Assembly (NCBI GenBank): GCA_944388715.1 | Contig: CALXJV010000001.1 | Coordinates: 1-47,717, forward strand | Length of the DNA stretch: 47,717 nucleotides | Reading direction: 5' to 3' | DNA from: an uncultured Clostridia bacterium | GTDB taxonomy: Bacteria; Bacillota; Clostridia; TANB77; CAG-508 | Part shown: piece by piece, positions 4,513-32,418 of the stretch | Numbering within the stretch: the stretch's first letter is position 1 | Layout of the letters: every line of letters starts with the position of its first letter | Notes under the pieces: generated by a model | Told to the model about the DNA's origin: nothing | Seen by the model: the letters and a program-made list of their open reading frames with translations, nothing else | Databases searched by the model: none | Made by a program: the position numbers and the translations under genes

Positions 4513-4541
4513 ACACTTTTCCATTTTGTTCGTTTTATTTA

Positions 4542-5199: not shown

Positions 5200-5213
5200 A
5201 TCAAATTATTATC

Positions 5214-6578: not shown

Positions 6579-6812
6579 TGTTATACTTCCTTCCTTTTAT
6601 TTAAATTGCCTTCTTTTGTGTATTTTCTAGTTTATATTATTCAAATTTTAATACTTTTATTCTTTTGAAAGTCATCCAACTTTGTTTTTCATATAAATTG
6701 ACCTATATAAATTATTTTGCATCACACTGTATTTTTATTTAATATAGTTTCAACTATACTATGTTTTTGTTTAATATAATTTGAATCAAACTAAACTATA
6801 TTTTTTATATAA

Positions 6813-7595: not shown

Positions 7596-7716
7596 TTTTC
7601 TTTTGCTCCTTTATTGTTTTTTCGTACTATATTAGTATAACGTTAAGTTCGTTTTTTTTCAATATCTTTTATCGAATTTTGTAATTTTTGGTTACAAAAA
7701 GACCAGTGATATCACA

Positions 7717-9497: not shown

Positions 9498-9508
9498 AAT
9501 ATCTCCTT

Positions 9509-10357: not shown

Positions 10358-10372
10358 TGTTGTTTTTCCTTT

Positions 10373-11649: not shown

Positions 11650-12600
11650 TTATGAAATATATGATTTCAATAATTCAATTTTTCCTTCTATTTTATATTC
11701 ACCAAGTTTAGCTGGTACAATAAAACTATCACCTTTTTTTATATTAATTTCTTTATTTTCATAATATATTTTGCCACTTCCATCTGTTATACTTATAGCA
11801 TAAAATGTATCTATATTTGAAGTATCTGTATATATATCTTCAATTTTAATTTTGTCTACATTAAAATATTTTGTTTTCATTATTTCTTGAACATTTTGTC
11901 CATTTGACTCAATTTTTTCAGCTTTACTGTTAAAATCTATAACATCTACAGCTTTATCTATATGTAATTCTCTTGGTTTTCCATCTTTTCCAACTCTATC
12001 CCAATCATATATTCTGTATGTCAAATCACTATTTTGCTGTATTTCACATATTAATATCCCTGATAAAATTGCATGTACTGTCCCTGAAGGTATATATATG
12101 CTATCTCCTTTTTGTACATCTACATATTTTAAATATTTTTTTATTTCTCCATTTTTTAGAATTTCTTTTATATTCTCTTTTTTTGCATTTTCATTAAGCC
12201 CACAAATTAATTTGGCATTTTCTTTACAGTCTAATATATACCACATTTCTGTTTTTCCAGAATCATTTTCATATCTTTTAGCAAATTCATCGTTAGGATG
12301 TACTTGGACAGATAAATTGTCATCTGCATCAATAAACTTTATCAATAATGGAAATTTCTCCATTTGTAAACATCTTTTCCCAAAAATGCTTTCTTTAGTT
12401 TCTTGGTTATTAAATAACTCGTCCAAGTCTTTGTCTTTCCATTCTCCATTTATTATTATGCTTTTGCCGTTTTTATTTGTTGATACTTCCCAACTTTCTG
12501 CTGTTTTTTCATATGGTGTATTTTTATTAAATTCTTTTTTTAATCTTGTTCCTCCCCATATATAGTCTTTATAGACAGGTTTTAAAAATATGATATCCAT
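11650..12600 (-). CDS. manA: class I mannose-6-phosphate isomerase
   Basis: FPLLIKFIDADDNLSVQVHPND and the GTVHA cupin motifs typical of type I PMI. Confidence 0.85.
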   Translation of the reverse strand: MDIIFLKPVYKDYIWGGTRLKKEFNKNTPYEKTAESWEVSTNKNGKSIIINGEWKDKDLDELFNNQETKESIFGKRCLQMEKFPLLIKFIDADDNLSVQVHPNDEFAKRYENDSGKTEMWYILDCKENAKLICGLNENAKKENIKEILKNGEIKKYLKYVDVQKGDSIYIPSGTVHAILSGILICEIQQNSDLTYRIYDWDRVGKDGKPRELHIDKAVDVIDFNSKAEKIESNGQNVQEIMKTKYFNVDKIKIEDIYTDTSNIDTFYAISITDGSGKIYYENKEINIKKGDSFIVPAKLGEYKIEGKIELLKSYIS

Positions 12601-12712: not shown

Positions 12713-14161
12713 CTAGATATTATAATTATAATAATACCTTTTATAATTAATCCTAAGATGCCTCCTATACCGTATGTTGCTAATAACAAAACTACAAATG
12801 ACTAAATCTAAAATAAATATTATTAAATAATATAAATATGTTAAATAATATCTTCTGCTTGATGTATTAAATTTATATTTATGAATTATATATGGATCAT
12901 ACATTGTTGTTATAAATAGATTCGTTATTCCTGTAGCAATTAACACTCCAAACATTCCCCAAAATTGTACTAAAATAACAGATAAAATCACATTACATAT
13001 TGAAGATATTAATGGAATTAGTCGTCCTTTTTTAAATAGTCCCATTGTATCCCTAAAAGTATAATTTACAAATCGCATTCCTTCAACATATATATTAAAA
13101 CCTAATGCAAAACAAACACTAAAATTCAATATATATTCATTTCCGAGCCATATACTAATAAAATCATTACTTAATAAAATTATAGCTATTGATACAACAC
13201 CACATATTAAAAATGATAATAATAGTATTTGATAAAATACTGATTCTTTTTTTTCGTCATCTTCTTCAGTATTTAAATTTCCCACACTTGCTGTAAATCC
13301 ATTAAAAAATGATAAAAGAAAACCTAATATCGAGTTTGTGATTGTTGTATAATTTGATAACAATCCAACTTCTTTAACACCTATAAAAGTAGAAATTATT
13401 ATATTATCTGTGCCACTTGATAATATCGTTCCTATTTTATACAGCACTAAAGATTTTACATCTGAAAACACACTTTTTTCTTCGCTTTTAGATATTTTTT
13501 GATATTTCGTTTCTTTTATAAAGGGATACATCTTATTTGCTTTTTTGGCTGATATATAATTATCTAAAAATGTAGCTAATATTTGAATTACCAAATATAA
13601 TATGTAGCTTTTAGTTACTAACAAAATGATTATTTGGACTATATTTTGAATTGCATTAACTATAAAATTTATTACTGTTATTATATATTCTTTTTGATAA
13701 CTTATTACAAGTGACTTTTTATATGTAAAAAAGTAAAATATAGTTGAATTAGCTAAAAACAAAATATATATAACATATATGTTTTCTTTTATATCTGGAA
13801 CATCATTTATCATATATTTTATAAACGGTATAATTGCTATCCCTATTGCTGATATTATAAGGCCAATTAATATATATACTTTTTGATAAAATTTCATATA
13901 TGTTTTTATTTTCTCAGTATCATTTTCAGCAATAGGTTTATATAGTTTAAATATAATAGCACTTCCTATTCCTAATTCAGCCAATGATAAAATAGTTAAT
14001 ATATTAGAAAATAAACCATTAATCCCTAAATATTCTGTACTTAATATTTTAATAAATACAGTTCTACAAATAAATTGTAATACAAATATTAGAATTTTTG
14101 ATATTATTGCTACTGTTGAATTTATAGTGGTATTTTTTATTCTTGAAGTATTGTATTCCAT
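12713..14161 (-). CDS. Wzx-type oligosaccharide flippase (MOP superfamily), copy 2
   Basis: 482 aa and about 12-14 TM helices, with a polysaccharide-biosynthesis-protein pattern and locus context. Confidence 0.75.
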   Translation of the reverse strand: MEYNTSRIKNTTINSTVAIISKILIFVLQFICRTVFIKILSTEYLGINGLFSNILTILSLAELGIGSAIIFKLYKPIAENDTEKIKTYMKFYQKVYILIGLIISAIGIAIIPFIKYMINDVPDIKENIYVIYILFLANSTIFYFFTYKKSLVISYQKEYIITVINFIVNAIQNIVQIIILLVTKSYILYLVIQILATFLDNYISAKKANKMYPFIKETKYQKISKSEEKSVFSDVKSLVLYKIGTILSSGTDNIIISTFIGVKEVGLLSNYTTITNSILGFLLSFFNGFTASVGNLNTEEDDEKKESVFYQILLLSFLICGVVSIAIILLSNDFISIWLGNEYILNFSVCFALGFNIYVEGMRFVNYTFRDTMGLFKKGRLIPLISSICNVILSVILVQFWGMFGVLIATGITNLFITTMYDPYIIHKYKFNTSSRRYYLTYLYYLIIFILDLVICSFVISNIRYRRHLRINYKRYYYNYNI

Positions 14162-17326: not shown

Positions 17327-18448
17327 TTATTTCCAAAAGAATTCATATGGTACAATTCCATATAATTCATCTGCATAGTACACTAAAATATAAATACACG
17401 TAAAAAACATAATTCCAAATAGAATAACAAATAATAAAGTTTTATTAATTCTCTTTTTAATATTACTCAATACTCTTGGTATTAATATTAAAGTAAATGG
17501 CAAAACATAATATGATAATCTATTTACAATCGCTATTTTTAATGTAAGTACAGTAACAATAAAATATATATAAGATAAATATACTAAAAAATCATTATTA
17601 TCCTGATTTTTTTTCAAATTCGTCCTTTTGTTAAATATTAATACAATATATCCTATTATAAAAAACAATCCTGCAATTGCTACCGTATATATGCTTATTA
17701 TATTAACTTTTTGTCCACCATATCTGTCAATTTCAAAATAATTTTCATATCCTCTACGATTACTTAGTCCAAAACTAGAAAAAACATTTGTAAATAGCAT
17801 TATAATTTGATTTCCCACTAGCATCATAATTATAGCTATAATTAATAAAACCAAAAAAGTTTTTCTTGTAAATTTAATCTTATATAATGGTATTAACGCT
17901 AAACAAATTATTGCAGACGTGTGCATTGATGTTGCTAGTAATATTAATATTATTGCTTTTAAATTTTTATGCTGTTTTATATATTCATACGCTATCAAGA
18001 TAATTGCCACTGCAATTTCTTGCCTTATAATATTTAGTGTCATAAAATAAATACGTAATAATACAAATAACATTGTACTTATTTCTACTTTTTCAGAATT
18101 TTTATATATAAAAACTCCATATACTGGTATTATAAAACAACTTGTCAAAACAATAAGACCTTGTACATCTCCACAAAATAAAGATATTATTTTATTTATT
18201 AAAACATATCCACCTTCAAATTCGACTTCAAATAAATTTGAAAAATCCAAATATTTTATTTGTTCAAATGTAGGTGCATAGAAAAGATTTAAATCCGTCC
18301 CTATAGTATATTTTCTTAACATCGCTACTACAGTTAATAATCCAAAACATACTATAAGATAGCATTTTTTAGTGTTACTATTTTTATTTACATTTCCAAA
18401 TAAAGAATATATCATAATAATAATTATTACTCCAAGATATATAGCCAT
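17327..18448 (-). CDS. EpsG-family / Wzy-type polysaccharide polymerase
   Basis: 373 aa and about 10-11 TM helices, with an EpsG-like pattern and locus context. Confidence 0.7.
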   Translation of the reverse strand: MAIYLGVIIIIMIYSLFGNVNKNSNTKKCYLIVCFGLLTVVAMLRKYTIGTDLNLFYAPTFEQIKYLDFSNLFEVEFEGGYVLINKIISLFCGDVQGLIVLTSCFIIPVYGVFIYKNSEKVEISTMLFVLLRIYFMTLNIIRQEIAVAIILIAYEYIKQHKNLKAIILILLATSMHTSAIICLALIPLYKIKFTRKTFLVLLIIAIIMMLVGNQIIMLFTNVFSSFGLSNRRGYENYFEIDRYGGQKVNIISIYTVAIAGLFFIIGYIVLIFNKRTNLKKNQDNNDFLVYLSYIYFIVTVLTLKIAIVNRLSYYVLPFTLILIPRVLSNIKKRINKTLLFVILFGIMFFTCIYILVYYADELYGIVPYEFFWK

Positions 18449-19569
18449 TAAAATTTCTCCTCTTTCATTATCTTTTCATATAAATTACTAAAATTAATTT
18501 TTGCTTTTTTTATATTATAATCTGACGCTTTTAATTTTTCTTGATAAACTTCACTATTTCTATTATTCGTCATTTCAAAATCTTTTAAAATTTTTTCACT
18601 CCAAAATAGAGCACTTTCATTTAAATCAATGAAATTTACTAAATCTGTAAGTTGTATATCTTTTGGAACATTTGTAGATGCATATACTCTCAATCCATTT
18701 GCCTGAGCTTCAACAAAAACTATTCCTAGTCCTTCAAATAATGACGGTAATAAGAATGCATCCATAGCAGAATAGAATTCGTAAACATTTTCCACGTTTT
18801 TTATTATTAAAACATTTTCCTCCAATTTTTTTTCCTTTATGTATTCTACTATACTTTTTTCCAAAGTTCCTTCACCTATCCATAAAAGTTTTACTTTTTC
18901 ATTAACTTTTTTTATACATTCTAATATATCAATAATAAAAAATGGATTCTTTTGTTTAGTTATTCTTGCTACAGTTCCTATTACAAATTGGTTTTCGTTT
19001 ATATTATACTTTTTGCGTATTTTTTGTCTACTTGATAAATTAAACTTATATTTTTCTATATTTATTGCATTTTTTATAATAGTAAAATTTTGATTTTGAA
19101 ACATAGATTTTCCTGCATCTTCGGTACAAGCAACCTTTTTATCTGAAAAGTTAATACATAGTTTATTTAATACATTCCCTATAAAATTCATTCTAAAATT
19201 AGGATTATGTACATGATATATTATTTTAGTATTTGGACTATATTTTTTTACAGCTTTTATACACGCATAGGCATATACATTAACCAAATTCACATGTACT
19301 ATATCATAGTTATTTTTTAAGTATTTCTTTAAAGACTTCTTAACTTTAAAATATCTATTTATCTTATTATGAGATTCAGCAATTAATATTCTCCCATTAT
19401 TTTTTTGTATTGTATCTATATATCTTTTACTCATTTGTATATCATCTCTTATTAAATAAAAATCTATTTTATAACCATCTTTTATTAATTCAGGATAATA
19501 ACTCATAAAAAAGCTTGCTACTCCATTAGAATTTCCTAAGCTTGATAAACAAACTAATATCTTTTTCAA
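18448..19569 (-). CDS. GT4 (GT-B fold) glycosyltransferase
   Basis: C-terminal E-x7-E type motif LPSLFEGLGIVFVEAQANG. The stop overlaps the next start. Confidence 0.8.
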   Translation of the reverse strand: MKKILVCLSSLGNSNGVASFFMSYYPELIKDGYKIDFYLIRDDIQMSKRYIDTIQKNNGRILIAESHNKINRYFKVKKSLKKYLKNNYDIVHVNLVNVYAYACIKAVKKYSPNTKIIYHVHNPNFRMNFIGNVLNKLCINFSDKKVACTEDAGKSMFQNQNFTIIKNAINIEKYKFNLSSRQKIRKKYNINENQFVIGTVARITKQKNPFFIIDILECIKKVNEKVKLLWIGEGTLEKSIVEYIKEKKLEENVLIIKNVENVYEFYSAMDAFLLPSLFEGLGIVFVEAQANGLRVYASTNVPKDIQLTDLVNFIDLNESALFWSEKILKDFEMTNNRNSEVYQEKLKASDYNIKKAKINFSNLYEKIMKEEKF

Positions 19570-19589: not shown

Positions 19590-20681
19590 TTAACTAATAG
19601 TTTTCTCTTTTCTATATCTAATTTTTATGATTAACCAATCTAAAATTTTTTTCAAATATTTATTAAGAATAACTGCTAACACTAAACTTATAATAAATGA
19701 AATCATAAAAAATATACCAGATATAATTTCATTTCCTATTTTGTCACTAAAAAATTCAAAATATTTTATAATTGGTTGGTGAACTAAATATAATTCCATA
19801 CTTATTCCACCTAAATAGATTAATACTTTATTATTTAATATCCTAGATATAATTCCTTTTTCAAAAGCAAATATAAAAACAATTAATATAGATAAAATTT
19901 CTTGAATTGTTTTATGATCTTGTAATAATCTGAAATGATATCCTAAGATTAATAAAACACATATTCCAATTTCTAAAATTGTCATTTTAGTCTCATTTTG
20001 TTTAGTATCTTTTAAATTTAAGAAAATACCTCCTAAAAAGATTCCTTGTAAATAATCAAATAATCTATAAAAAGGAAATATATACCCTGCATAACTTGCA
20101 TAATCTCCTAATAAAGGTGTAATAAAATGATTATACACAAACTTTAATCCAGCTATAATTACCATAATTACTATTAGCTTTTTATTATCTAATTTGTTTA
20201 TTTTATTAATAATCCAAGGTGTTAAGAAATAACATAAAATAATTACATCTAAAAACCATGCTACTCCATTAAACGCATAAAAATAGTCTACATTTGGTAT
20301 ATAACTCTGAAATAGAAATATTGAAGGAATTAGTCTTGAAATTGTAATTCCTATATATTCTAAATTTACTCCTCCGATTTCTAAATAATATTTATACAAT
20401 GTAATTGGTGCTTTTAGCAATATGGTAAATATTAATAAAGGGTAGAATTTTTTAATTTTTTTTATGAGAAATTTCAATGTTTCTTTTAATGTTAATTTTT
20501 CATTAAATTTATCCCAATAATTATACGCCATCATAAAACCCGAAAGTACAAAGAAAAATTCTACTCCTAATCCAGCAATACCATAGTTAACATCAATTAA
20601 TCCTGCACAGTGATGTATAAAAATAGTTAGAAATGCTAAAAATCTCCAACTTTGTAATACTTCTAATCTTCTTTTTCTCAT
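19590..20681 (-). CDS. acyltransferase family 3 membrane O-acyltransferase
   Basis: WRFLAFLTIFIHHC N-terminal motif and about 10 TM helices. Confidence 0.8.
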   Translation of the reverse strand: MRKRRLEVLQSWRFLAFLTIFIHHCAGLIDVNYGIAGLGVEFFFVLSGFMMAYNYWDKFNEKLTLKETLKFLIKKIKKFYPLLIFTILLKAPITLYKYYLEIGGVNLEYIGITISRLIPSIFLFQSYIPNVDYFYAFNGVAWFLDVIILCYFLTPWIINKINKLDNKKLIVIMVIIAGLKFVYNHFITPLLGDYASYAGYIFPFYRLFDYLQGIFLGGIFLNLKDTKQNETKMTILEIGICVLLILGYHFRLLQDHKTIQEILSILIVFIFAFEKGIISRILNNKVLIYLGGISMELYLVHQPIIKYFEFFSDKIGNEIISGIFFMISFIISLVLAVILNKYLKKILDWLIIKIRYRKEKTIS

Positions 20682-20874: not shown

Positions 20875-22032
20875 TTACTTTCTTAATATTTTTTTTATAA
20901 TTCTTTTTCCATTTTTTATACTTTTTTTCAATATCGATTGATTTTTTGTATATTTTTTCACTACTTTTTCAAATTCCATATTTGAGTTAAGATCCTTAAA
21001 AAATTGCTCTCTTTCTTTATTCTGAACTGCAGAAGTAATAAAAGATTTGTTGTATTTTATTGTTTCATCAATATCTACTTCTTCAATAATACTACATTTA
21101 TCTTTAATTTTTCCTAATAATTTTTCCCCTTTTTTAGAATTTACAATAACTAAAGATATCCCCTTATGATCATTTAATTTTGGTTTTATTTTTGATATTC
21201 CCCAAAAGTCGGCTAATGTAATATCTGAGTTTCTATTAAACTTTTTAAAATGACAAGAATAACAAGAATCTCTTAATGACAAATCCTGTAAAAAAGCTTT
21301 CATATACATATCATTATTATGATTAATATTATATGTATAATTATCATATTCTATGTTCATTGAGTAGCTTTCCCAACTATCTTTTTTATTTCTAAAATTA
21401 ATATTTTTAATTTTGCCATATTTCATATTTTTTGAATTTCCTAAATATTTTTGCCACACTTTTTTAGATGGTACTCCATGGCATACGATATCCTGAGTAT
21501 ACAACCTATCATAGTTTTGTTGCAAAAAAGATTTAAGACCTTCAACTTGACATGGTGTACCTGTAAACAATACATATCTATCTTGTTCTAAGAAAGCTTT
21601 TACTTGCTTGTATATTTCTTTAATATCACTTTGTAAATATTTAGATCCCCTTAATTCTTTTAATTGTTCTTTATTTTCAACATATTTATGCATTACATTA
21701 AAATTTTCATCAAATGCTACTCCAAAAACAATTCCTTTCATGTCAATTATTTCTTCAGCCAATAGAGTAAAAATCCCCCCTGATGAACTTTCACTTCTTA
21801 TTTTATCATTTTTATTAATACATGCATATGCTTTAGGTTTATTTTCTACTTTTTGGTTACTTATTATTGGACATACCTTTTCACATAATTTACAATCAAT
21901 ACATTTTTCTTCATCCACAATCGGATATCTAAAACCTTTTTCATCTTCTTCCATAGTTATAGCTTGTTTTGGACATATATTATAACAAGCTGAACATCCA
22001 CAACATTGTGTTTTTTCTATTATATTTATCAT
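20875..22032 (-). CDS. FrhB-like (coenzyme F420 hydrogenase/dehydrogenase beta-subunit family) protein with 2x[4Fe-4S] ferredoxin domain
   Basis: CCGCSACYNICP and CIDCKLCEKVCP cluster motifs, followed by the SSSGGIFT and GTPCQV motifs shared with the two paralogs in this window. Confidence 0.8.
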   Translation of the reverse strand: MINIIEKTQCCGCSACYNICPKQAITMEEDEKGFRYPIVDEEKCIDCKLCEKVCPIISNQKVENKPKAYACINKNDKIRSESSSGGIFTLLAEEIIDMKGIVFGVAFDENFNVMHKYVENKEQLKELRGSKYLQSDIKEIYKQVKAFLEQDRYVLFTGTPCQVEGLKSFLQQNYDRLYTQDIVCHGVPSKKVWQKYLGNSKNMKYGKIKNINFRNKKDSWESYSMNIEYDNYTYNINHNNDMYMKAFLQDLSLRDSCYSCHFKKFNRNSDITLADFWGISKIKPKLNDHKGISLVIVNSKKGEKLLGKIKDKCSIIEEVDIDETIKYNKSFITSAVQNKEREQFFKDLNSNMEFEKVVKKYTKNQSILKKSIKNGKRIIKKILRK

Positions 22033-22123
22033 TTTATGCTCCTTATAATACCAAATTTCTTTCTTCTTACTTCAAATTAATCATTTTTTTAATAAATTAT
22101 AAACTAAACTTAATAAATAATTA

Positions 22124-23650
22124 TTAATTATATGTTTGTTTTTTCAATATTTTATATAAAGGTTTTCTTATTAAATTTTTTTCGTATTGATTCATACCAA
22201 AGAACCATACTAATATACAATAAATAACAGTATATATTATTATTTTTAAGGCTAATATTAATATATTATCAGAAACTAAAAATATATTTAAAATAATACC
22301 AAATACAACTGCAAAAATCATTGGGATTGTCATTCTTATTATGTTTTTCCAGAACTCTATCATATTGATTCCTACTTTTTTATGATAATATATATTTAAT
22401 ATAATTCCTTGACCTAATATTAAAGATATCGAAGTCGCAATTGCCGCTCCAATCCCACCATAAATTTTAGCTAATGGTATACTCATAGCAATATTTAAGA
22501 TTGCTATCCCCAAAAAAATTATTGTTCTATATTTGTACAAATTTTTAGCTTGTAGAATGCTTAATCCTATATTTTGTATTAGTGGTATTGTTATTGGAAT
22601 CATTAATATACATGCTATTATATATGCTTCTTCATATCCTTCTCCTGCCCACCAGTTAATAAATACTTGTCCAAATAATACAAAACCAGTAATTATCAAT
22701 GCCATTAATAGATATTGTATCCTTCCTGTTTGTATAAATATATCTGTAAATGCTTTATTTGTCGCTTTACTATCTTCCATTTTAGTTACTTTAGGAAGCA
22801 TTACATTACTTATAGCTGTAGAAAAATTCATATACATACTATTTAGTTTTCCAGCCACTGAATATACTGCTGTTGCAACTGTACCAGAAACTGCACCTAA
22901 AACAAATTGATCTAAACTCCAATTAACTTTATCAATTATTGCATTTAAAAATATATAAAAAGAATACGCAAAAATCTCCTTTAGTAGTTTAAAATCAATT
23001 CCTTTAAATTTTAATTTTACATTTAAATGCTTAAAACAAACAATTGCATTCAACATTAAACATATTATATTCGTTATTGTTAAAACCACAACCATAGCTA
23101 TTGCTTTATATCCTAATAATAATAATGGTATCATCATCATTGGTTGTAATAATATTTGAATGATTTTTATAACTTTGCTTACAATAAACTTTTCATGTGC
23201 TGTTAAAATATTCCCAAAAATACTTAATGGAAATGTTATTGCTAAATTAAATGTTAAAATTAACATCATAACTTTTGCTTCTGACAATTCTGTTTCTGTC
23301 ATTGTACTTTCAAATAAGTTATTTACATTAAAAAATAATATCAAACCTATTATTGTTGCAATCACACCTATTACACAATAAATAGTAAAAAACATTCCGT
23401 GTAATTTATCTTGTTTTTCTTTGTCTCCTTGATTAATGTATCTTGAAGTATATATTACTATTGCATTTCCAAATCCCATATCCATGATTGTAAGATATGA
23501 CATTACAGAATAAATTATTGAATATAAACCATATTCTGATTGTCCCAACATTCTGATCAGAAACGGTGTATATACAATTCCCACAATCATATTTAAAGCA
23601 ATTACAGCATATGATAATATAACTCCTATTTTTCTTTGATTATTCTGCAT
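22124..23650 (-). CDS. Wzx-type oligosaccharide flippase (MOP superfamily), copy 1
   Basis: 508 aa and about 14 TM helices. It overlaps the upstream pyruvyl transferase gene by 11 nt. Confidence 0.75.
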   Translation of the reverse strand: MQNNQRKIGVILSYAVIALNMIVGIVYTPFLIRMLGQSEYGLYSIIYSVMSYLTIMDMGFGNAIVIYTSRYINQGDKEKQDKLHGMFFTIYCVIGVIATIIGLILFFNVNNLFESTMTETELSEAKVMMLILTFNLAITFPLSIFGNILTAHEKFIVSKVIKIIQILLQPMMMIPLLLLGYKAIAMVVVLTITNIICLMLNAIVCFKHLNVKLKFKGIDFKLLKEIFAYSFYIFLNAIIDKVNWSLDQFVLGAVSGTVATAVYSVAGKLNSMYMNFSTAISNVMLPKVTKMEDSKATNKAFTDIFIQTGRIQYLLMALIITGFVLFGQVFINWWAGEGYEEAYIIACILMIPITIPLIQNIGLSILQAKNLYKYRTIIFLGIAILNIAMSIPLAKIYGGIGAAIATSISLILGQGIILNIYYHKKVGINMIEFWKNIIRMTIPMIFAVVFGIILNIFLVSDNILILALKIIIYTVIYCILVWFFGMNQYEKNLIRKPLYKILKKQTYN

Positions 23651-24818
23651 TTATATTTCCCCCATTAAAAGTCTCTAATGCTGTTTTTAGAAATCTCTTT
23701 GAGTCCTCTATTTTTCTAGACATATTTATATCAATCTTATCATAATCTAATAATGTATTATCTTTTTCTATTTTATCTTTTACAATTCTATTGGTTGCTT
23801 CAAAAAGTTCTAATAAAGTATAAATTCTACTATTAGTTGATACTAATGTTCCTTTTTCGAAAGCATAAAATTCTTTTTTAAAAATATATGAAAAACATAT
23901 TGCATGAAACGAATCTGTTATTACATATTCAGAATATTTTATCAAATTTAAAAAATCTTCAAATGTTATATCTAACATTTGTTTATCTCCAAACTTATAA
24001 TCTTCTATCCTAAACTCAAATCTATTACCATTTTTTATATATGGTAGTGTAACTAATAATAAATTCTCTTGTTTTGCAAATTTCTCAATTTGTTTTTTTT
24101 GTTTTTTGTTATCTCCTATCATGTAAGAGAAAATATATTTTTCTTTAATGATCCTTTCCGTTGTCAACTTTTCCCAATCTTTTCTTTCTAAAATCAATGT
24201 TGGGTCCATTACCCACTCAACATTTTTATTTGTTAAACTTTGTATTATATCTTTACTTGATTTTTCTCTCACTGATATAAAGCCATATTTTTCCAATTCT
24301 TTTTTCATAAAATCTTTATATTTATCTGTTACATCTGTTACTGCTACACTAGATGCATATGACAAAATTTTTTTATTTTGATTTTTCAAAAAAGAAAAAA
24401 CAAACGCTTGATCTACTACACCTGGATTCCAAACTTGATCACTTCCTGTTATAAATATATCATATTTATCTGAGATTTCAGAAATTGTTTCTAAACTATA
24501 TACCTTAGAATGAGGAATTGAATTTCTAAAATTTTCAAGTTTTTGCCCTCTAGTTTCTAATTTGGCTTTATATCTCTTTGATAGGTATTTTTCTATTGGC
24601 ACATGTGAAATTCTCTTTATCTTCCCTTTGCATCTATTTATTAGCATTTTTAAATTTTTATTTTTATTAACTAAATTTAATGTAGATGGCTTTTTCTTGT
24701 ATGTTATTAATTCACATTCATATCCTAAATTTGAAAAATATTTGTATAAAGCATATGCTTGTGCGACTCCACCATAATTGTTATTTTTATAATATAATGT
24801 TATAATCCCTATTTTCAT
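23640..24818 (-). CDS. polysaccharide pyruvyl transferase family protein
   Basis: MKIGIITLYYKNNNYGGVAQAYAL N-terminus and the GSDQVWNP and ITDSFHA motifs (CsaB/WcaK-type family). Confidence 0.8.
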   Translation of the reverse strand: MKIGIITLYYKNNNYGGVAQAYALYKYFSNLGYECELITYKKKPSTLNLVNKNKNLKMLINRCKGKIKRISHVPIEKYLSKRYKAKLETRGQKLENFRNSIPHSKVYSLETISEISDKYDIFITGSDQVWNPGVVDQAFVFSFLKNQNKKILSYASSVAVTDVTDKYKDFMKKELEKYGFISVREKSSKDIIQSLTNKNVEWVMDPTLILERKDWEKLTTERIIKEKYIFSYMIGDNKKQKKQIEKFAKQENLLLVTLPYIKNGNRFEFRIEDYKFGDKQMLDITFEDFLNLIKYSEYVITDSFHAICFSYIFKKEFYAFEKGTLVSTNSRIYTLLELFEATNRIVKDKIEKDNTLLDYDKIDINMSRKIEDSKRFLKTALETFNGGNINAE

Positions 24819-24865
24819 TTTTTTTCCTTTCTATGCAAAATATATTTCTTATATTAAAAAACTTA

Positions 24866-26050
24866 TTATTTTATTATATTTTTAATTAAGTCATATGTTT
24901 TTGTTTTATAAGCAATCTCTTTTATAGCATTTTTTAGTTGCTTCTGCTTACTCATATTTATATTTTTATTTATATTTACTTCAATATTTAAATCATCTAT
25001 ATTTCTAAAGAAATTGTCACGATTTTTATGTTTTTTATTTGATTTAATAACCATCTTATTATTTTTTACAACACTTTCAATATCTATCAACTTCTTTGTA
25101 ACCTTGTTGTTTATCTCATTGAATATTTTTTCTCCTTTTAAGGTATTAATTAGGATAGCAGAAATTCCATTATTATTAGTCTCTTTTAATAATTCTTTAT
25201 CTGCTCCCCAAAAATCTCCAACTATTATATCTGCATTATAATTATCATATTTATATTGGCAATTATTACATGATTTTCTATAATATAATCCTTGTAAATA
25301 TCCTTTTCCATATATGTTAGTTGAATATGTCAATTGTGATTTTATTTTTCCATTCTTAAAAATCTGTTTCATTACAGGTGGTTCCCAACCTATGTCTTTA
25401 CTACGAAATTTTACATCTTTTAGTTTACTATGATTTTTTTCTTCTATATATCCTTTATATTTTCTCCATACTTTAGGAGATGCTACTCCTTCACATATAA
25501 CAGCCATTGTATACAAATTTTGTTCTTCTACTAAATAACTTTTTACGGCCGCTACTTGACATGGCGTACCTGTAAATAATACTATTTTACCTTCATTTAA
25601 TATAGATTTTATTTTTACAACCGTTTCATTTAAATCACTTTGAACATATTTAGATCCCTTCATTTTGTTTACTTCTTCTGGTTTATTTGTAACAACATGA
25701 ACCGCCTCTAATTTATCATTCCAAACACATCCACATACATGTCCACCTTTTTCTATTATGCATTCTGCTAATATTGGAAATATTCCTCCTGATGAACTTT
25801 CTTTTCTTTTTTCTTCATCTTTCATATAGCATGAATACCATTTATTTAATCTAATTTTTTCTTTATTTACTTCAAGATTTAAAAAAGGACATTTTTTATT
25901 ACACATACCACATTTAATGCATTTTTCTTCATCAATTACTGGCATTAAAAAACCTTCTTTATTTTCTTCTATTCTTATGGCTTTTGTGGGACATATATTT
26001 TCGCAATTTCTACATCCATAACAATTTTTCTCAAAATTAAAATCTATCAC
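24866..26050 (-). CDS. FrhB-like protein with 2x[4Fe-4S] ferredoxin domain
   Basis: CYGCRNCENICP, CIKCGMCNKKCP, SSSGGIFP and GTPCQV motifs. It starts 5 nt after the stop of the upstream pyruvyl transferase. Confidence 0.8.
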   Translation of the reverse strand: MIDFNFEKNCYGCRNCENICPTKAIRIEENKEGFLMPVIDEEKCIKCGMCNKKCPFLNLEVNKEKIRLNKWYSCYMKDEEKRKESSSGGIFPILAECIIEKGGHVCGCVWNDKLEAVHVVTNKPEEVNKMKGSKYVQSDLNETVVKIKSILNEGKIVLFTGTPCQVAAVKSYLVEEQNLYTMAVICEGVASPKVWRKYKGYIEEKNHSKLKDVKFRSKDIGWEPPVMKQIFKNGKIKSQLTYSTNIYGKGYLQGLYYRKSCNNCQYKYDNYNADIIVGDFWGADKELLKETNNNGISAILINTLKGEKIFNEINNKVTKKLIDIESVVKNNKMVIKSNKKHKNRDNFFRNIDDLNIEVNINKNINMSKQKQLKNAIKEIAYKTKTYDLIKNIIK

Positions 26051-26055
26051 TTATA

Positions 26056-27189
26056 TTACTCCTTACATAATTCTAAAGCTCTATCTATAAAATTATTTGT
26101 TTTATTTCTTTCCTTTTCCAATATTTCGTTTACTTTATCATAATCAATTTCATTATCTATTTGATTTACATTATGATTATTTTTTAGTTTTCTATCTTCC
26201 AATCCTGTTAATTCTAAAATGCTTTGTAATCTTGCACTAAATTTTTTTGGAAATATGCAAATAAATTTTTTATTTAAATTAATAGAAAATGCTGTTCCAT
26301 GGAATGAATCTGTAATTATATACTCGGCTTTTAAAAAATAATCCAAAAAATCTAAAACTTCCGGTGTAGCCACTAATTTACCATATTTAAATTTTTGATA
26401 ATTATTTATAGATACTCTTATCACTGGTAATTTCTTTTCTTTAGATAGCTTCTTTACATATTCATCAAACTCTTTATTATCCATATTCAATTGATAAACT
26501 AATATATATTTTTCTTCTTTTTTTGCCAGTTCTTTTCCTTCCACAAACTCTTGCCACATATTTTTATCTAATAATAATGTTGGATCCAATACATGTTCGG
26601 CATCCTTTATTCCCATTTTATTTAATATATTTACTCCTGAACTTTCTCTTACAGATATTGCTTTATATTTTTTTAACATCCTTGCTACTTCTTTTTCTTC
26701 ATCTTCATCTTTAATTTCATTTCTACCAAAACTGCTAGATAATGCAAATCTTGGTGTTTCGTCTGGTAAAAAGTCTAGATAAAAAGCTCTTTCTATTCCA
26801 TTATTCCATTCAGCATTCCACATTTGATCACTACCTGTACAATATATATCTGCTTTCGGAACATTTTTTTCTAATTCTTCATAAGAATAATATGTATCTT
26901 TAGTTACTTTGATATATTCCTTTACAAATTTATTAAATACTCTTATTTGTTTATTTATTGTTTTTGGTAATACTATCTTTCCAATAAGTTTTGTAATACA
27001 ATTCATAGAAAAAAATTTAGAGTTTTCTAATTTATTTTTTAAAATATTGTCATCTATTAAATTATTTCTATAATAATTTATAAATTCAACTTCATAACCT
27101 TTTTTTTCTAATATTGTTTGTGTTGCTATTGATTGAAGAACTGAACCATAATTTTTTACATTGTGTAATGTTATAACATCTATTTTCAT
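26056..27189 (-). CDS. polysaccharide pyruvyl transferase family protein
   Basis: MKIDVITLHNVKNYGSVLQS N-terminus and the GSDQMWN and ITDSFHG motifs. The start is set at the ATG at 27189, which is preceded by AGGAGG. The ORF-track start at 27267 would overlap the GT2 gene. Confidence 0.8.
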   Translation of the reverse strand: MKIDVITLHNVKNYGSVLQSIATQTILEKKGYEVEFINYYRNNLIDDNILKNKLENSKFFSMNCITKLIGKIVLPKTINKQIRVFNKFVKEYIKVTKDTYYSYEELEKNVPKADIYCTGSDQMWNAEWNNGIERAFYLDFLPDETPRFALSSSFGRNEIKDEDEEKEVARMLKKYKAISVRESSGVNILNKMGIKDAEHVLDPTLLLDKNMWQEFVEGKELAKKEEKYILVYQLNMDNKEFDEYVKKLSKEKKLPVIRVSINNYQKFKYGKLVATPEVLDFLDYFLKAEYIITDSFHGTAFSINLNKKFICIFPKKFSARLQSILELTGLEDRKLKNNHNVNQIDNEIDYDKVNEILEKERNKTNNFIDRALELCKE

Positions 27190-27220
27190 GATTTCCTCCT
27201 TGTTATACCTGCCTATTATT

Positions 27221-28213
27221 TTAATCGACCTTTCGAATTTTATATACTTTTCTGTATACCTTAGCAAGAACTCCTAATAAGTATAATATTAATATTCTAT
27301 TATTCAAAAAAATTTTCGCTATAATTTTATTTTTTTGGCTTATGCTATTTTTTATTATTTCCTCAAATTGACTATTATCTACTATATTATCTTTTATATT
27401 TTCTTTAAATTTTTTGTGAAATACAAATTTTGAAATACCTGCTAAACATATTTGAATATACTGATTATATAAATATTCTAAATTCCAACCTTTTTCAATA
27501 TATAACTTTTTATTTTTTTTCCAATTTTCTAGTTTTATTTTGAGTTTATTATCTCTTTTTAATAAACTTAAACCTGTTTCTTTAGTGTAATATTTATACA
27601 ATATTTTATCAATATATTCTATACTTTCTATGTACTTAATGTATTCTATATTAAATATATAATCCTCTCCTATCGACAAGTTTTTATCAAATTTTATATT
27701 ATTCTCTTTTATAATACTTTTCGAATAAATCTTATTCCATACTTGATTAAATAGCAAATTAGCTTGTAATGTCTCTATTTGTTGTTTAATTTGCTTAGCA
27801 TTAATATTTTTATCAACTTTTATTTTACGTATATTTCCGTTTTTCTCATTTATTCTATCATAAGCACACACTACTAACTTTTTCTCTTCTATTTGTCGTA
27901 CCATTGTCTCTAGAAATTTTGAATCATATTCATCATCAGAATCTATAAAACATATATATTCTCCTTTTGCCATTGAAACACCTAAATTTCTAGCATTGCT
28001 AACTCCATTATTTTCTATTTCTATATATTTAATTTTAGGATTCTTTTCAGAATGTTGCAAACATATTTCTTTTGTGTGATCTGTAGAACCATCATTAATT
28101 ATTATAAGTTCGAAATTATTATATGATTGCTTTTCAATAGTATTAATAGTTCTATCAATTATTTCCTCTGCATTATAAACTGGTAAAATGATTGATATAT
28201 CTTTTTTTTTCAT
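27221..28213 (-). CDS. GT2 (GT-A fold) glycosyltransferase
   Basis: ISIILPVYNAEEII...IIINDGSTDHT and DSDDEY motifs. Confidence 0.85.
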   Translation of the reverse strand: MKKKDISIILPVYNAEEIIDRTINTIEKQSYNNFELIIINDGSTDHTKEICLQHSEKNPKIKYIEIENNGVSNARNLGVSMAKGEYICFIDSDDEYDSKFLETMVRQIEEKKLVVCAYDRINEKNGNIRKIKVDKNINAKQIKQQIETLQANLLFNQVWNKIYSKSIIKENNIKFDKNLSIGEDYIFNIEYIKYIESIEYIDKILYKYYTKETGLSLLKRDNKLKIKLENWKKNKKLYIEKGWNLEYLYNQYIQICLAGISKFVFHKKFKENIKDNIVDNSQFEEIIKNSISQKNKIIAKIFLNNRILILYLLGVLAKVYRKVYKIRKVD

Positions 28214-28222
28214 ATGGTCTCT

Positions 28223-30622
28223 CTATCCTTTTCTTAGAATTTTCTTTATAGCTTTTTTTGTTGTTTTATAAATTTTAGTTTTAGCAAGATTTTTTCTTAT
28301 CACTTTTTCTGTTCTTACCTTTAAACTATTTGGAAAATATTTATTGAAAAATGTTTCTTCTTCCATATTATTTATATCTTTAAAAAATTCTTTTCTCTTA
28401 GAATTCATAGATACACTATTATACATTTCTTTTACATTTTTCACTAATTTATCCACTGGTACTTCTTTATAATTAAATTGGTCTTTGATATTTTCAAACA
28501 ATTCGTTTCCTTTTTGTGATTGTACTAAAATCCTTGTTGTCCCTTTATCATCATCTAATCTTTTATCAAAATTCTCTACTGTAAAACAATCCCAAATAGT
28601 TAAATCACTAACTCTAAATTGCTTTTTAAATTTACAATTATAACATGCAGGTCTATCTGATAAATCTCCAAAAAAAGCTCTTAAATATGGATCTGTCTCC
28701 ACTCCTTCACTGTAAATCTTATTATCTGCTCTTATAGACATCATAGAATATTTATAACCATATTTACTTTTGTCTCTAAATAAAATTTCTTGTATATTAT
28801 TTAGTCCATTATTTTCTTTTTCATAATGTAAATATTTTCTCCATACTAATGGTGATGGCACCGCATGACATACTATGTCTACAGTAATTAGTTTTTCATA
28901 TTCTTTGCCTAAAAATTTTTTCAAACCTTCAATTTGACATGGTGTACCACTGAAGCATACCAATCTATCATTTTCTAAAAATTCTTTTGCCTCTTTAAAT
29001 GTATTTTTTAGATTGCTTTGTACATATTTACTTCCTCTAAATTTTTTTAAATCTTTTTTTGTTGTTACATAAGTATGTTGAACATTAAATTCTTCATCAA
29101 ATGTAGCACCAAATACAACTCCATTATTTTCAATTATATATTCTGCTATTGCTGTAAATGCTCCTCCAGATGTACTTTCTTTCCTAATTTTTTCATCCTT
29201 ATTATTTACAACATATGCCATTTGTTTTGTTTCTTTTTCTTTATTCTGATTTAAAATAGGACATACTTTTTGACATAATCCACAATTTATACATTTTTCT
29301 TTATCGACTACTGGATATAAAAAGCCTTCTTCATCTTCTTGCATTTTTATTGCATTTTGTGGACATATATTTTTACATGCTGTACAACCACAACATAAAG
29401 ACTTATCTTCTATTTGAATATATTTATTTTTTTTTTCTTGTTCTTGGTCTCTAATACTTTGTTGTAATGCATCTTTTAAAAATTCTTTTGATTCTTCTCT
29501 AAAAGCTTCTAAATTCTGATTAACAATATCAAAATTAATTTTATTCTTCAATACTTCTTTTACATTTTCGTTTCCTTTTAGTAATCTATTTTCTAAATTC
29601 ATTAAACCTAGTAAAGAATAAATTCTTGAATTTGTAGAAACTTTTGAATTTTTATTCTTATATCTTTCAAATGTAAAAAATTCTATATTATTTATTAAAG
29701 AAAATACTGTACCATGAAAAGAATCTGTACATACATATTGGGCATTTCTTATTAAATTTAAAAATTCTTTTGGCCCTATATCATATGGTGTTATATCTGC
29801 AAATTTATCACTATATTTTACATATTCATCTGCATGATTTAAAGATACAATTTTGCACCCTGTTCTTTCTTTTAACCTTTCAGCAAATTTTCTATGCTCT
29901 ATATTTTTCCCCAAAAAATAGCATAAAATATAATTTTCTTTTATTATTGGTTCATCGTTTTGTACTTGTGTCCATTCTTCTTTTGACAATAACATTGTTG
30001 GATCACAAACCAATTTAGCATCTCTTCCAGTTAAATCTTTTACTATTTCACATCCTTTATCTTCTCTTACAGATATATAGTTAATTCTTTTTAAGAATTC
30101 TGTATACTTTTCTTTATATTTTTTCGGTATTTCAGATATTCCAAAACTTGTAGCATATGATATTTTATTGATGTTATCTGGTACCCAATTTAAAGTATAA
30201 TAATCTGCCACTACATTTACTGGTAACCATAATTGATCGCTTCCCACTATAATACTTGTATATCTTTTTGCACTTTCTTTTAAATCTTCATATGTCAATT
30301 GTGGACTTGTTAATCTGAACTCTTTTTGAAATTCTTTATATTTTTTATCCCTAATAGCTATATTTCTTCCTAGCTTTTTATGTGTTTTTTTATCAATTTT
30401 TAATTTTATCATTCCTAATTTTGATTTCACAAATTTAAAATCAAATATTTGTGTTTTATAATACTTTGCTTTTCCTTTTTTAAAATCAATATTACTTGTA
30501 ATATCAAAAGTTTCATTTTCTAATCCCATATTATCTAAAACTTTTTGTGTTGCATATGCCTGTAACATACTCCCATAATTATGTTTAAAATAACAAGATA
30601 CTATACCTATTTTTCCACTCAT
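28223..30622 (-). CDS. natural fusion of a polysaccharide pyruvyl transferase (N-terminal ~400 aa) with an FrhB-like 2x[4Fe-4S] protein (C-terminal ~395 aa)
   Basis: The N-terminal half has GSDQLW and CTDSFHG. The C-terminal half has CCGCTACKNICP, CINCGLCQKVCP, STSGGAFT and GTPCQI. The joint ...KKNKYIQIEDKSLCCGC aligns with the N-termini MINIIEKTQCCGC and MIDFNFEKNCYGC of the stand-alone paralogs. Confidence 0.8.
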   Translation of the reverse strand: MSGKIGIVSCYFKHNYGSMLQAYATQKVLDNMGLENETFDITSNIDFKKGKAKYYKTQIFDFKFVKSKLGMIKLKIDKKTHKKLGRNIAIRDKKYKEFQKEFRLTSPQLTYEDLKESAKRYTSIIVGSDQLWLPVNVVADYYTLNWVPDNINKISYATSFGISEIPKKYKEKYTEFLKRINYISVREDKGCEIVKDLTGRDAKLVCDPTMLLSKEEWTQVQNDEPIIKENYILCYFLGKNIEHRKFAERLKERTGCKIVSLNHADEYVKYSDKFADITPYDIGPKEFLNLIRNAQYVCTDSFHGTVFSLINNIEFFTFERYKNKNSKVSTNSRIYSLLGLMNLENRLLKGNENVKEVLKNKINFDIVNQNLEAFREESKEFLKDALQQSIRDQEQEKKNKYIQIEDKSLCCGCTACKNICPQNAIKMQEDEEGFLYPVVDKEKCINCGLCQKVCPILNQNKEKETKQMAYVVNNKDEKIRKESTSGGAFTAIAEYIIENNGVVFGATFDEEFNVQHTYVTTKKDLKKFRGSKYVQSNLKNTFKEAKEFLENDRLVCFSGTPCQIEGLKKFLGKEYEKLITVDIVCHAVPSPLVWRKYLHYEKENNGLNNIQEILFRDKSKYGYKYSMMSIRADNKIYSEGVETDPYLRAFFGDLSDRPACYNCKFKKQFRVSDLTIWDCFTVENFDKRLDDDKGTTRILVQSQKGNELFENIKDQFNYKEVPVDKLVKNVKEMYNSVSMNSKRKEFFKDINNMEEETFFNKYFPNSLKVRTEKVIRKNLAKTKIYKTTKKAIKKILRKG

Positions 30623-30625
30623 AAC

Positions 30626-31705
30626 TTATTCTCCATATTCTTCTTTATATTTTTTTACCATATTTTTTATATTATATATTGTTTGTATATCTTTCCATTC
30701 TTTATCTACTACATCTACAAAATTTTTGTTTTTTAATAGCATATTAATTATATTTACATATTCATCTGTGTTTCTAGCAATATATCCATTGTTTCCATCT
30801 TCAATCACATCTCTATTTCCTATAACATCACTTACAATACATATTTTTTTCATATACATTGCTTCTAATAAGGAAATAGGTAACCCTTCCCATAAAGATG
30901 GTAGTAGAAATATATCATTATCATTCAGTTCTCTTAATACGTCTTTTCTTTCTAACCAACCTGTTATTCTGATATTTGAAGATTTTAATTCATCTTTTAA
31001 TTCTCCATCTCCAATCCAAGTAAATTGCAAGTTTGGAAAATTTTTAGCTATTTCATTGAACATTTTTGGATTTTTTTGAAAACCAATTCTTCCTACTGTA
31101 CATATTTTCAAATTATCACAATCAATTTCTTTTTCTTTTAAACTTTTGGTTTCTTCTTTTAATTTCTCTATATTTATTCCATTATTAATACATATTGAAT
31201 TCTTGTTTAACTTTTTAGCTTCTTCATATTCACCTTTTGAACACCCTACTATTGTGCATTTTGGATTTAGCATCGCTGTTACTTTTTCTATTGCCTTATA
31301 CATGAACCTTTTTAGTCTTGAATCATCCATTTTCAAAAAAGAAAATCCATGAGGATTATAAAACATTTTTATTTTCCTATTATGGATTCCTATTCGTCCT
31401 AGTATTCCAGCTTTTGAAGAATGTAAATGTACAATCTCTGGTTTTTCTTCCTTTACAATTTTCCTAATTTCTTTTAATGCTTTTATATCTTTTTTACAAT
31501 TAATACTTCTTGTAAAATTTTCAACTTCAATAAATTTTATATCTTTGTTGAAATATTCTTTAAAATTTTCTGGAGTCTGCGGTCTCAATGAATAGGCAAC
31601 AACAATTTCATATTCATCACTTAATCCATTAAATAAATCACATAATACTGTAAATACTCCTCCTCCAAATGCTTCTACTATTTGAAGAACTTTTTTCTTT
31701 GCCAT
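30626..31705 (-). CDS. GT4 (GT-B fold) glycosyltransferase
   Basis: LPSLWEGLPISLLEAMYMKK motif. The start overlaps the stop of the upstream gene (TAATG). Confidence 0.8.
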   Translation of the reverse strand: MAKKKVLQIVEAFGGGVFTVLCDLFNGLSDEYEIVVAYSLRPQTPENFKEYFNKDIKFIEVENFTRSINCKKDIKALKEIRKIVKEEKPEIVHLHSSKAGILGRIGIHNRKIKMFYNPHGFSFLKMDDSRLKRFMYKAIEKVTAMLNPKCTIVGCSKGEYEEAKKLNKNSICINNGINIEKLKEETKSLKEKEIDCDNLKICTVGRIGFQKNPKMFNEIAKNFPNLQFTWIGDGELKDELKSSNIRITGWLERKDVLRELNDNDIFLLPSLWEGLPISLLEAMYMKKICIVSDVIGNRDVIEDGNNGYIARNTDEYVNIINMLLKNKNFVDVVDKEWKDIQTIYNIKNMVKKYKEEYGE

Positions 31706-32418
31706 TATATAGCTCCTTCTTTTTTTATTACATTTTCTACTGTTTTGTATAATATTTTTATATCTGATTTTAATGTATGATTATAATAATAACTCATATC
31801 TAGAGTTAGTCTTTCTGTAAATGTTGTATCACTTCTCCCACTTGTTTGCCACAGTCCTGTTATTCCTGGTTTACAAGATGTTATGTAATTGAAGAAACCA
31901 TTTATGTCCTCTTTTTCTCTTGGCATATATGGTCTTGGCCCTACTAAACTCATTTCTCCTTTTAGCACATTTATAAATTGAGGAAATTCATCTAAACTTG
32001 TTTTTCTTATAAATTTTCCTATTTTAGTAATCCTAGGGTCATTTTTTAATTTCTTATATTCTTTAAATTCTTTTCTTGCCTCTTCATTTTCTTCTAAATA
32101 TTTTTTTAGTTTTTCATCTGCCCCTACTACCATTGAGCGATATTTATACATTTTAAATATTTTGCCATTTTTTCCTATTCTATCTTGTGTATAAAATATA
32201 GGACCATTATCTTTTGCTATTTTATTAGCTATCCAAAGACCTATTGTTAAAGGAATTAGCAAAAACATTCCACATAATCCACCTAAAATATCTATAGCTC
32301 TTTTTGCTATTTTCTCTAACTTTACTGTGAATCTATTTCTTTCTAATTTCTTTGGTATGAGTGCAAAACTTTCTATATCATTATCTTCATATAATAATAT
32401 ATCATTTCGAACATCCAT
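31705..32418 (-). CDS. initiating undecaprenyl-phosphate sugar-phosphate transferase (small bacterial sugar transferase, EpsL/WbaP C-terminal type)
   Basis: A single TM segment plus the catalytic domain motifs GPRP, DEFPQ and GITGLWQ. It is the first gene of the co-directional locus. Confidence 0.85.
   Translation of the reverse strand: MDVRNDILLYEDNDIESFALIPKKLERNRFTVKLEKIAKRAIDILGGLCGMFLLIPLTIGLWIANKIAKDNGPIFYTQDRIGKNGKIFKMYKYRSMVVGADEKLKKYLEENEEARKEFKEYKKLKNDPRITKIGKFIRKTSLDEFPQFINVLKGEMSLVGPRPYMPREKEDINGFFNYITSCKPGITGLWQTSGRSDTTFTERLTLDMSYYYNHTLKSDIKILYKTVENVIKKEGAI

Follow-up and report, generated by a model that had tools for sequence, protein, structure and literature searches.

Lactyl (1-carboxyethyl) ethers are known from enterobacterial surface glycans. 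A 2019 review reports lactyl groups in Escherichia coli O58, O69, O124, O146 and O150, attributes the difference between O124, which contains glucolactilic acid (D-GlcLA), and O164, which contains plain Glc, to a frameshift in wfeP, and uses the notation 'UDP-D-GlcpLA'. In a comparison of 79 Klebsiella K types, Pan et al. (2015) found a 'coenzyme F420 hydrogenase' gene (HG203) and the pyruvyltransferase gene wcqF to be unique to K66, and a 'nitroreductase' gene (HG127) and the pyruvyl transferase gene wclZ to be unique to K22/K37; in the same study, K8, K22, K37 and K66 have pyruvyltransferase genes, yet the capsule is not pyruvylated. The K66 side chain is beta-D-Glcp-O-lac without a pyruvate ketal, and K22 and K37 carry 4-O-lactyl-GlcA, given for K22 as 4-O-[(S)-1-carboxyethyl]-GlcA. 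Here we analyse a stretch of 47,717 nucleotides (nt), hereafter the window, from contig CALXJV010000001.1 of an uncultured Clostridia bacterium (assembly GCA_944388715.1), in which three gene pairs of this kind lie in one glycan locus. Each consists of a polysaccharide pyruvyl transferase (PS_pyruv_trans) and an Fe-S flavoprotein of the FrhB family, named after the beta subunit of coenzyme F420 hydrogenase/dehydrogenase, and one pair is fused into a single polypeptide of 799 amino acids (aa).

The pair genes at 20875-30622 are intact open reading frames (ORFs), all on the minus strand (Table 1). We consider it likely, with a probability of roughly 0.7, that the three two-component modules put lactyl ethers on repeat-unit sugars of a Wzy-dependent capsule or exopolysaccharide. 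An earlier note on this DNA, made from the letters alone, had already placed three PS_pyruv_trans and three FrhB-like proteins here, and profile searches with hidden Markov models (HMMs) recover all of them above Pfam cut-offs; its suggestion that the two proteins act as one functional unit making lactyl ethers, not plain ketals, is borne out by the solved glycans of O124 and K66. Its remark that the FrhB-like partner in glycan loci has no assigned function is genetically outdated, as the 2019 review ties O124/O164 to a frameshift in one gene of such a pair. By homology and layout, the window modules are assigned to the enterobacterial glycolactilic-acid module, and they are a distant relative of a genetically known kind of system whose biochemistry we did not find described in the literature that could be searched. 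Open-access literature on lactyl ether biosynthesis, GlcLA and wfeP yielded no mechanistic paper, and full-text literature on pyruvyl transferases together with F420 or FrhB yielded only the Klebsiella 79-K-type paper.

The window shares the combination of a subfamily-1 transferase and an FrhB-like protein in one operon with O124/O164, Shigella dysenteriae 3 and S. boydii 17 (wfeP and its neighbour) and with Klebsiella K66 (HG203 and wcqF). We located the O124/O164 cluster among divergent glf matches, the others sampled being O170, O85, O96, an untyped cluster and a capsule locus. In E. coli VL7S7 it reads wzx, FrhB-like, PS_pyruv_trans, GT2, GT32, wzy, GT2, glf, GT2, with the FrhB-like gene annotated as 'Coenzyme F420 hydrogenase/dehydrogenase beta subunit C-terminal domain'. 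Every other gene of the cluster is either wzx, wzy, glf or a glycosyltransferase gene, which leaves the FrhB-like gene and the PS_pyruv_trans gene as the sole candidates for GlcLA synthesis. The transferase gene is split by a 1-nt indel in three of the six complete genomes with this cluster (NZ_AP023197.1, NZ_AP023190.1 and NZ_CP116197.1), which is probably the O164 allele with the reported frameshift; in other assemblies the O124-type FrhB-like gene is split into 358 and 117 aa, and O124-type proteins also occur in S. boydii and S. dysenteriae. E. coli SE15 (NC_013654.1:2050001-2100000), expected as an O150:H5 strain to have an O150 cluster, was rejected as a further example, as it has an O16-family wzx/wzy cluster instead and no lactyl genes.

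A second type of module is found in the O146 cluster of E. coli ATCC 8739, which reads nitroreductase (PF00881), wzx, PS_pyruv_trans; DNA-level searches with the O146 genes gave matches in O146 genomes only. The O146 and K22/K37 modules use the same transferase subfamily as the window, and their glycans carry lactyl ethers (lactyl-Glc in O146), but their reductase has the nitroreductase fold, with no FrhB or Fer4 domain detected. The correlation of the gene pair, or of the transferase subfamily, with lactyl ethers holds in four to five solved glycans. The assignment of lactyl chemistry to the pair, a deduction with genetic backing, appears well supported, and the pairing itself is not new. In contrast to the enterobacterial pairs, which are single-copy and unfused with the FrhB-like gene preceding the transferase gene, the Gram-positive-type locus of the window contains three modules, of which one is a fusion. 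We found no description in the searchable literature of three such modules within a single locus, a fused form, a transferase-Wzx-FrhB unit or the wide spread of these modules in gut anaerobes.

The three window transferases match PF04230 at 128.4, 143.5 and 148.3 bits (cut-off 25.3), covering profile positions 1 to 276/277 of 280 (residues 15-319 of the fusion), and all contain the GSDQxW and TDSFH motifs, which are invariant in the transferase alignment. They are 29-34% identical among themselves, 29-31% identical over the full length to the O124 transferase (E 1e-29 to 1e-40; 31% for module 2) and 26-29% identical over the full length, with the same motifs, to the O146 transferase (E 1e-28 to 1e-40 for O124 and O146 together), so that their similarity to the O124 and O146 enzymes is as high as to one another. 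BLAST found no similarity between the window transferases and the ketal-forming WcaK, which falls in PS_pyruv_trans subfamily 2. A PDB sequence search with the transferase domain gave no match, and the link to Pvg1p comes only from the fold search: with the N-terminal half of an AlphaFold2 model of the fusion (predicted local distance difference test score 90, predicted template modelling score 0.83), Foldseek retrieved Pvg1p (5ax7_A, E 2.8e-5, target-normalised TM 0.59) and many GT-B enzymes.

Like WcaK, CsaB and Pvg1p, then, the window transferases belong to PF04230 and are predicted to have a GT-B-like fold, with phosphoenolpyruvate (PEP) as the donor from family knowledge. These three are the members with known products, and all form ketals. 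The transferases could accordingly make ordinary cyclic pyruvate ketals, with the FrhB-like proteins doing an unrelated redox job such as keto-sugar reduction or electron supply, and the Pvg1p fold match, the WcaK-like subfamily-2 transferases that also adjoin FrhB-like genes and the occasional fusion of FrhB-like modules to glycosyltransferases would all fit. We judge this explanation improbable, as WcaK, CsaB and Pvg1p, unlike the window transferases, act without a redox partner, and canonical ketal transferases need none. Moreover, K66 (with this pair) and K22/K37 (with the nitroreductase) have a 'pyruvyltransferase' and yet carry lactyl ethers and no ketal, the O124 pair goes with a lactyl ether that no other non-glycosyltransferase gene of its cluster could make, and three distinct flavoreductase families occur in the same position (see below).

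On the reductase side, all three FrhB-like modules combine a Fer4 dicluster domain with PF04422 (32-44 bits, cut-off 22) and PF04432 (77-92 bits, cut-off 23.3), each above its cut-off (residues 406-722 of the fusion), and are 36-48% identical among themselves. Every module has two CxxCxxCxxxCP motifs and GTPCQ, while SSSGG is exact in two of three and reads STSGG in the fusion; among the motifs that the earlier note gave as common to all copies, this is the single one that does not hold throughout, GSDQxW and TDSFH included. Across 14 diverse FrhB-like partners, the alignment shows as invariant the eight ferredoxin cysteines, C161, C184, C257, C260 and GSKYxQS, with the four extra cysteines sitting in GTPCQ, ICHG and CxxC; the predicted cofactor layout is of the Fe-S flavoprotein type. 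Foldseek with the C-terminal half of the fusion model retrieved FrhB-like subunits of F420-reducing complexes, Fsr, FrhB and Arabidopsis HCAR. With FrhB, FpoF, the N-terminal half of Fsr and plant HCAR the window modules share the fold and the [4Fe-4S] ligands, and they have an added ferredoxin domain as in FpoF and Fsr. They differ from these FrhB-family redox modules in that their partner is a glycan-modifying transferase and not a hydrogenase, respiratory complex or sulfite reductase.

Given that F420-reducing complexes and Fsr are the best structural matches, and that the Pfam and PGAP family names refer to F420 hydrogenase/dehydrogenase, the FrhB-like proteins might be genuine F420-dependent enzymes, with the modules needing cofactor F420. 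We find this very improbable and reject F420 dependence on failed equivalog models and on host range. The NCBIfam equivalogs for FrhB, FpoF and related proteins (TIGR03289, NF040616 and NF006808) all failed on the window modules, at 30-51 bits against cut-offs of about 330-475, and the family is present in E. coli, Klebsiella, Bacteroides and Clostridia, none of which, to our knowledge, is known to make F420. The fold also has a non-F420 member in Arabidopsis HCAR, a ferredoxin-dependent FrhB-family reductase.

To place the pairs in context, we scanned the FrhB-like alignment against one genome per species, which gave 80 loci with 84 FrhB-like genes from Clostridia, Bacilli, Bacteroidales, Spirochaetia, Elusimicrobia, Flavobacteriia and Alphaproteobacteria; a full flank was defined as at least 4 kb on each side of the FrhB-like gene, and the transferase counts take in Pfam-confirmed members of both subfamily 1 and the WcaK-like subfamily 2. 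A PS_pyruv_trans gene lies in the available flank of 71 of the 84 FrhB-like genes, on the same strand in all but one, and near 46 of the 52 with full flanks, which extends the co-occurrence of the two families far beyond this locus. In the reverse direction, an FrhB-like gene lies within 3 kb of 42 of 48 full-flank subfamily-1 transferases on metagenome contigs. The two genes are fused in 5 cases in the 80-locus set, adjacent (at most 150 nt apart) in 32 and separated by exactly one gene of about 1.5 kb in 26. Reciprocal co-occurrence and fusions therefore make the functional link robust.

The intervening gene is commonly a flippase. For 24 of the 84 FrhB-like genes, an upstream transferase is separated by one gene of about 1.5 kb, and in at least 18 of these a homologue of the window Wzx stands directly upstream of the FrhB-like gene; in total, a Wzx gene adjoins 37 of 84. 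The transferase-Wzx-FrhB layout of module 3 is thus a recurrent three-gene unit. It compares with O124, where the FrhB-like gene lies in the same operon and adjoins wzx, and with O146, where wzx likewise lies between the two partners in the order reductase-wzx-transferase; wzx-FrhB-transferase is the layout in both Bacteroidales and O124. The order transferase then FrhB-like, which the earlier note took as constant, is therefore true of the window and reversed in Bacteroidales and O124. It appears that the flippase gene and the modification genes move together.

The reductase position can be occupied by other flavoenzymes. A metagenome locus (L123; Ga0316603_10000006, 1-10362) has three subfamily-1 transferases and no FrhB-like gene; it has an O146-like nitroreductase ORF at 1-1134 and, at 9361-10362, a MurB homologue that begins at the stop codon of the third transferase and whose PDB matches are all MurB (best 1hsk, E 1.6e-32). 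Judged from homology, the slot is filled by three flavoenzyme families, namely FrhB-like proteins in most anaerobes, O124 and K66, nitroreductases in O146 and K22/K37, and a MurB homologue at this one candidate locus, as would be expected if their common task were to reduce an enolpyruvyl ether. The nitroreductase version of the module has a chemical precedent in dehydro-F420-0, whose enolpyruvyl group is reduced by a nitroreductase-fold domain. The family of the reductase may also set stereochemistry, FrhB-like proteins giving (R) and nitroreductases (S) as in K22/K37; we take O124 GlcLA to be (R)-configured. As a separate observation, the 24.8-kb E. coli plasmid pBDSF8-3_3 (NZ_JBTWTU010000003.1; L174) carries fragments of both module types side by side, flanked by insertion sequences: a nitroreductase-transferase-GT2 module and a flippase-FrhB-like-transferase module.

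The chemistry that we propose resembles that of MurA and MurB, in which a PEP-derived enolpyruvyl ether is reduced by a flavoenzyme to a lactyl ether; the earlier note had drawn this analogy, and the MurB homologue that partners a subfamily-1 transferase at the metagenome locus lends it substance. The proteins themselves differ, as the window transferase is GT-B/Pvg1p-like, not EPSP-synthase-like as MurA, and where MurB is a PCMH-type NADPH enzyme, the window reductase is an Fe-S flavoprotein of the FrhB-like type; MurA (PF00275) and MurB (PF01565/PF02873) domains are absent by Pfam from the window proteins of this region. Going by its family, the GT-B-fold PS_pyruv_trans would move the enolpyruvyl group of PEP onto one sugar hydroxyl. 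The flavin of the cognate FrhB-like protein would then reduce the enol ether at its C=C bond by hydride transfer, pre-empting ketal closure by a neighbouring hydroxyl, a step that we infer from the partner family and the glycan correlations. Electrons would pass from the N-terminal 2x[4Fe-4S] ferredoxin-like domain to a third [4Fe-4S] cluster, and they probably come from reduced ferredoxin or flavodoxin and not from F420. The partners are paired strictly 1:1, each of the three divergent transferases has a divergent reductase of its own, and fusions have arisen repeatedly, which suggests that each pair forms a complex with its own acceptor specificity, the acceptor presumably being a nucleotide sugar or a lipid-linked intermediate. 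The linkage to Wzx suggests that modification probably takes place at the cytoplasmic face, ahead of flipping. Because the locus encodes one priming transferase and three glycosyltransferases, the repeat would comprise four sugars and could bear up to three acidic lactyl groups and an O-acyl group.

The steps might also run in a different order, with the FrhB-like protein first supplying a reduced donor, which might be 2-phospholactate derived from PEP, or with the reductase opening a ketal made by the transferase. The end product would be the same and all glycan correlations fit equally, as sequence alone cannot order the steps. We nevertheless regard such schemes as rather unlikely. MurB and the dehydro-F420-0 reductase both act on an enolpyruvyl group that has already been transferred, and a MurB homologue directly follows a subfamily-1 transferase at the metagenome locus. 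A free small donor would leave the 1:1 pairing, the three specific reductases in one locus and the fusions unexplained, and for reductive ketal opening we know of no enzymatic precedent.

Several observations weigh against lactyl ether formation by the window modules. Identity between the window's FrhB-like modules and their O124 counterpart is no higher than 20-24% (HMM E 8e-20), and the O124 protein has a reduced, single-cluster N-terminus with one CxxCxxC...CP motif in place of the dicluster domain of the window. It is from cluster content that we equate the 'two genes' of the primary O124/O164 papers with the FrhB-like gene and the transferase gene. The pairing has exceptions, since 6 of the 52 full-flank FrhB-like genes, inspected by eye, have no transferase nearby, and a few FrhB-like modules are fused to GT-D-fold or GT4 glycosyltransferases instead. 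Finally, WcaK-like subfamily-2 transferases also pair or fuse with FrhB-like proteins, although WcaK makes a ketal; at one locus (L045:6768-9104) such a transferase is fused to an FrhB-like module.

Lactyl ether formation by the pair has consequences for annotation. Public records labelled 'Coenzyme F420 hydrogenase/dehydrogenase beta subunit' and 'pyruvyl transferase' invite a reading as F420 metabolism or ketals, whereas on present evidence the gene pair predicts lactyl ethers. As a practical rule, a subfamily-1 transferase accompanied by an FrhB-like, nitroreductase or MurB-like protein would signal a lactyl ether, and a transferase of the family alone a ketal. The FrhB-like clade counts 8,764 cluster representatives at 50% identity (E at most 1e-30), mostly from gut and rumen anaerobes, and lactyl modification may be correspondingly widespread on microbiome capsules, where lactyl groups affect charge, phage and antibody recognition and genome-based prediction of glycan structure. 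A wider generalisation, which we offer tentatively and at somewhat less than even odds, is that FrhB-like proteins in glycan loci are ferredoxin-driven enolpyruvyl-ether reductases in obligate 1:1 complexes with GT-B transferases, together forming a lactyl route of independent origin from MurA/MurB that is spread, in gut Bacteroidales and Clostridia, across thousands of protein families. Lactyl-decorated capsules would in that case be common in the gut microbiome and not an enterobacterial curiosity of a few serotypes.

As a single polypeptide, the 799-aa fusion lends itself well to enzymological study. Its architecture recurs in at least 120 clusters of homologues 790-800 aa long; the fused transferase/FrhB-like form is common and not peculiar to the window. 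These full-length homologues, together with the AlphaFold2 model, rule out an assembly artefact or frameshift as its origin, and an exact-sequence look-up of the fusion found no record. Among the best 150 matches of the FrhB-like clade, 26 are long proteins, in which both transferase-FrhB and FrhB-transferase orders are seen; varied fusions are represented by proteins P0323, P0326, P0348, P0365, P0381, P0388, P0411 and P0424. Within the window, the paralogues must be old, because the transferases share 29-34% and the FrhB-like modules 36-48% identity, values that rule out a recent tandem triplication. In both families the fusion halves are most similar to the third pair (48% identity for the FrhB-like proteins), which is weakly consistent with duplication of the pair as a whole.

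The modules lie in a single Wzy-type capsule or exopolysaccharide locus on the minus strand, extending from about 32418 down to about 5200 by ORFs and Pfam, in a window of about 25% G+C (Table 1). In the order of transcription it begins with Bac_transf, GT4, the fusion, GT2, PS_pyruv_trans, FrhB-like, PS_pyruv_trans, Wzx and FrhB-like genes, continues with Acyl_transf_3, GT4, an EpsG polymerase, a dockerin-tagged protein, a second MatE/Wzx-like gene and phosphomannose isomerase, and ends distally with sortase, Wzz, a CpsD-like kinase, CpsB and phosphoglucomutase/phosphomannomutase. The spacing given in the earlier note proved accurate for all three pairs: the module 2 genes are 5 nt apart (26051-26055), with the FrhB-like gene downstream of its transferase, module 1 is a single polypeptide, and a flippase (PF01943) lies within the third pair. 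The longest ORF of the module 2 transferase extends to 27267, and the ATG start at 27189 is also called in related contigs.

Table 1. Features of the glycan locus, listed in the direction of transcription.
Feature	Position (nt)	Strand	Basis
Priming sugar-phosphate transferase (Bac_transf), locus start	31705-32418	-	Pfam
GT4 glycosyltransferase	30626-31705	-	Pfam
Module 1, 799-aa transferase/FrhB-like fusion	28223-30622	-	Pfam, motifs, AlphaFold2, Foldseek
Module 1, N-terminal GT-B-fold PS_pyruv_trans domain (about aa 1-395)	29438-30622	-	
Module 1, C-terminal 2x[4Fe-4S] ferredoxin and FrhB-like module (about aa 396-799)	28223-29437	-	
GT2 glycosyltransferase separating modules 1 and 2	27221-28213	-	Pfam
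Module 2 transferase, PS_pyruv_trans subfamily 1, 377 aa, ATG at 27189	26056-27189	-	Pfam, 143 bits
Module 2 FrhB-like Fe-S flavoprotein, 394 aa, GTG start	24866-26050	-	Pfam, Cys ligands
Module 3 transferase, PS_pyruv_trans subfamily 1, 392 aa	23640-24818	-	Pfam, 128 bits; motifs
Wzx-type flippase, between module 3 transferase and reductase	22124-23650	-	Pfam, PF01943/PF13440
Module 3 FrhB-like Fe-S flavoprotein, 385 aa	20875-22032	-	Pfam
Acyl_transf_3 O-acyltransferase	19590-20681	-	Pfam
GT4 glycosyltransferase, downstream	18448-19569	-	Pfam
EpsG-family polymerase	17327-18448	-	Pfam
993-aa protein with C-terminal type I dockerin	14266-17247	-	Pfam
Second MatE/Polysacc_synt-like flippase	12713-14161	-	family match
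Phosphomannose isomerase	11650-12600	-	family match
ORF with only a sub-threshold DUF2680 match	10980-11501	-	
Sortase	10373-10987	-	family match
ORF with no family match	9509-10357	-	
Wzz/CpsC-like protein	8766-9497	-	Pfam
CpsD-like P-loop kinase	7717-8766	-	Pfam
CpsB phosphatase	6813-7595	-	Pfam
Phosphoglucomutase/phosphomannomutase	5214-6578	-	Pfam

Besides its C-terminal dockerin, the 993-aa protein gave no Pfam match over its first ~930 residues; it may be a glycan-processing enzyme or a cell-surface anchor. Two independent metagenome contigs share the gene order of the window: the 10.2-kb contig holds the C-terminal end of a truncated upstream gene, two unfused pairs and the acyltransferase, while the shorter one stops within the third transferase, and neither reaches the N-terminal half of the fusion. 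A module 2 FrhB-like protein of 99% identity was found in two other metagenomes.

Outside the capsule locus, the window encodes FtsE (45060-45740) and FtsX (44161-45063), followed by three tandem paralogues of PcsB-like coiled-coil M23 peptidases (42929-44149, 41617-42795 and 40236-41495), all on the minus strand. At the window edge, a plus-strand ORF of 248 aa (358-1104) has a weak recombinase zinc-ribbon match (E 5e-6) and may be a mobile-element remnant.

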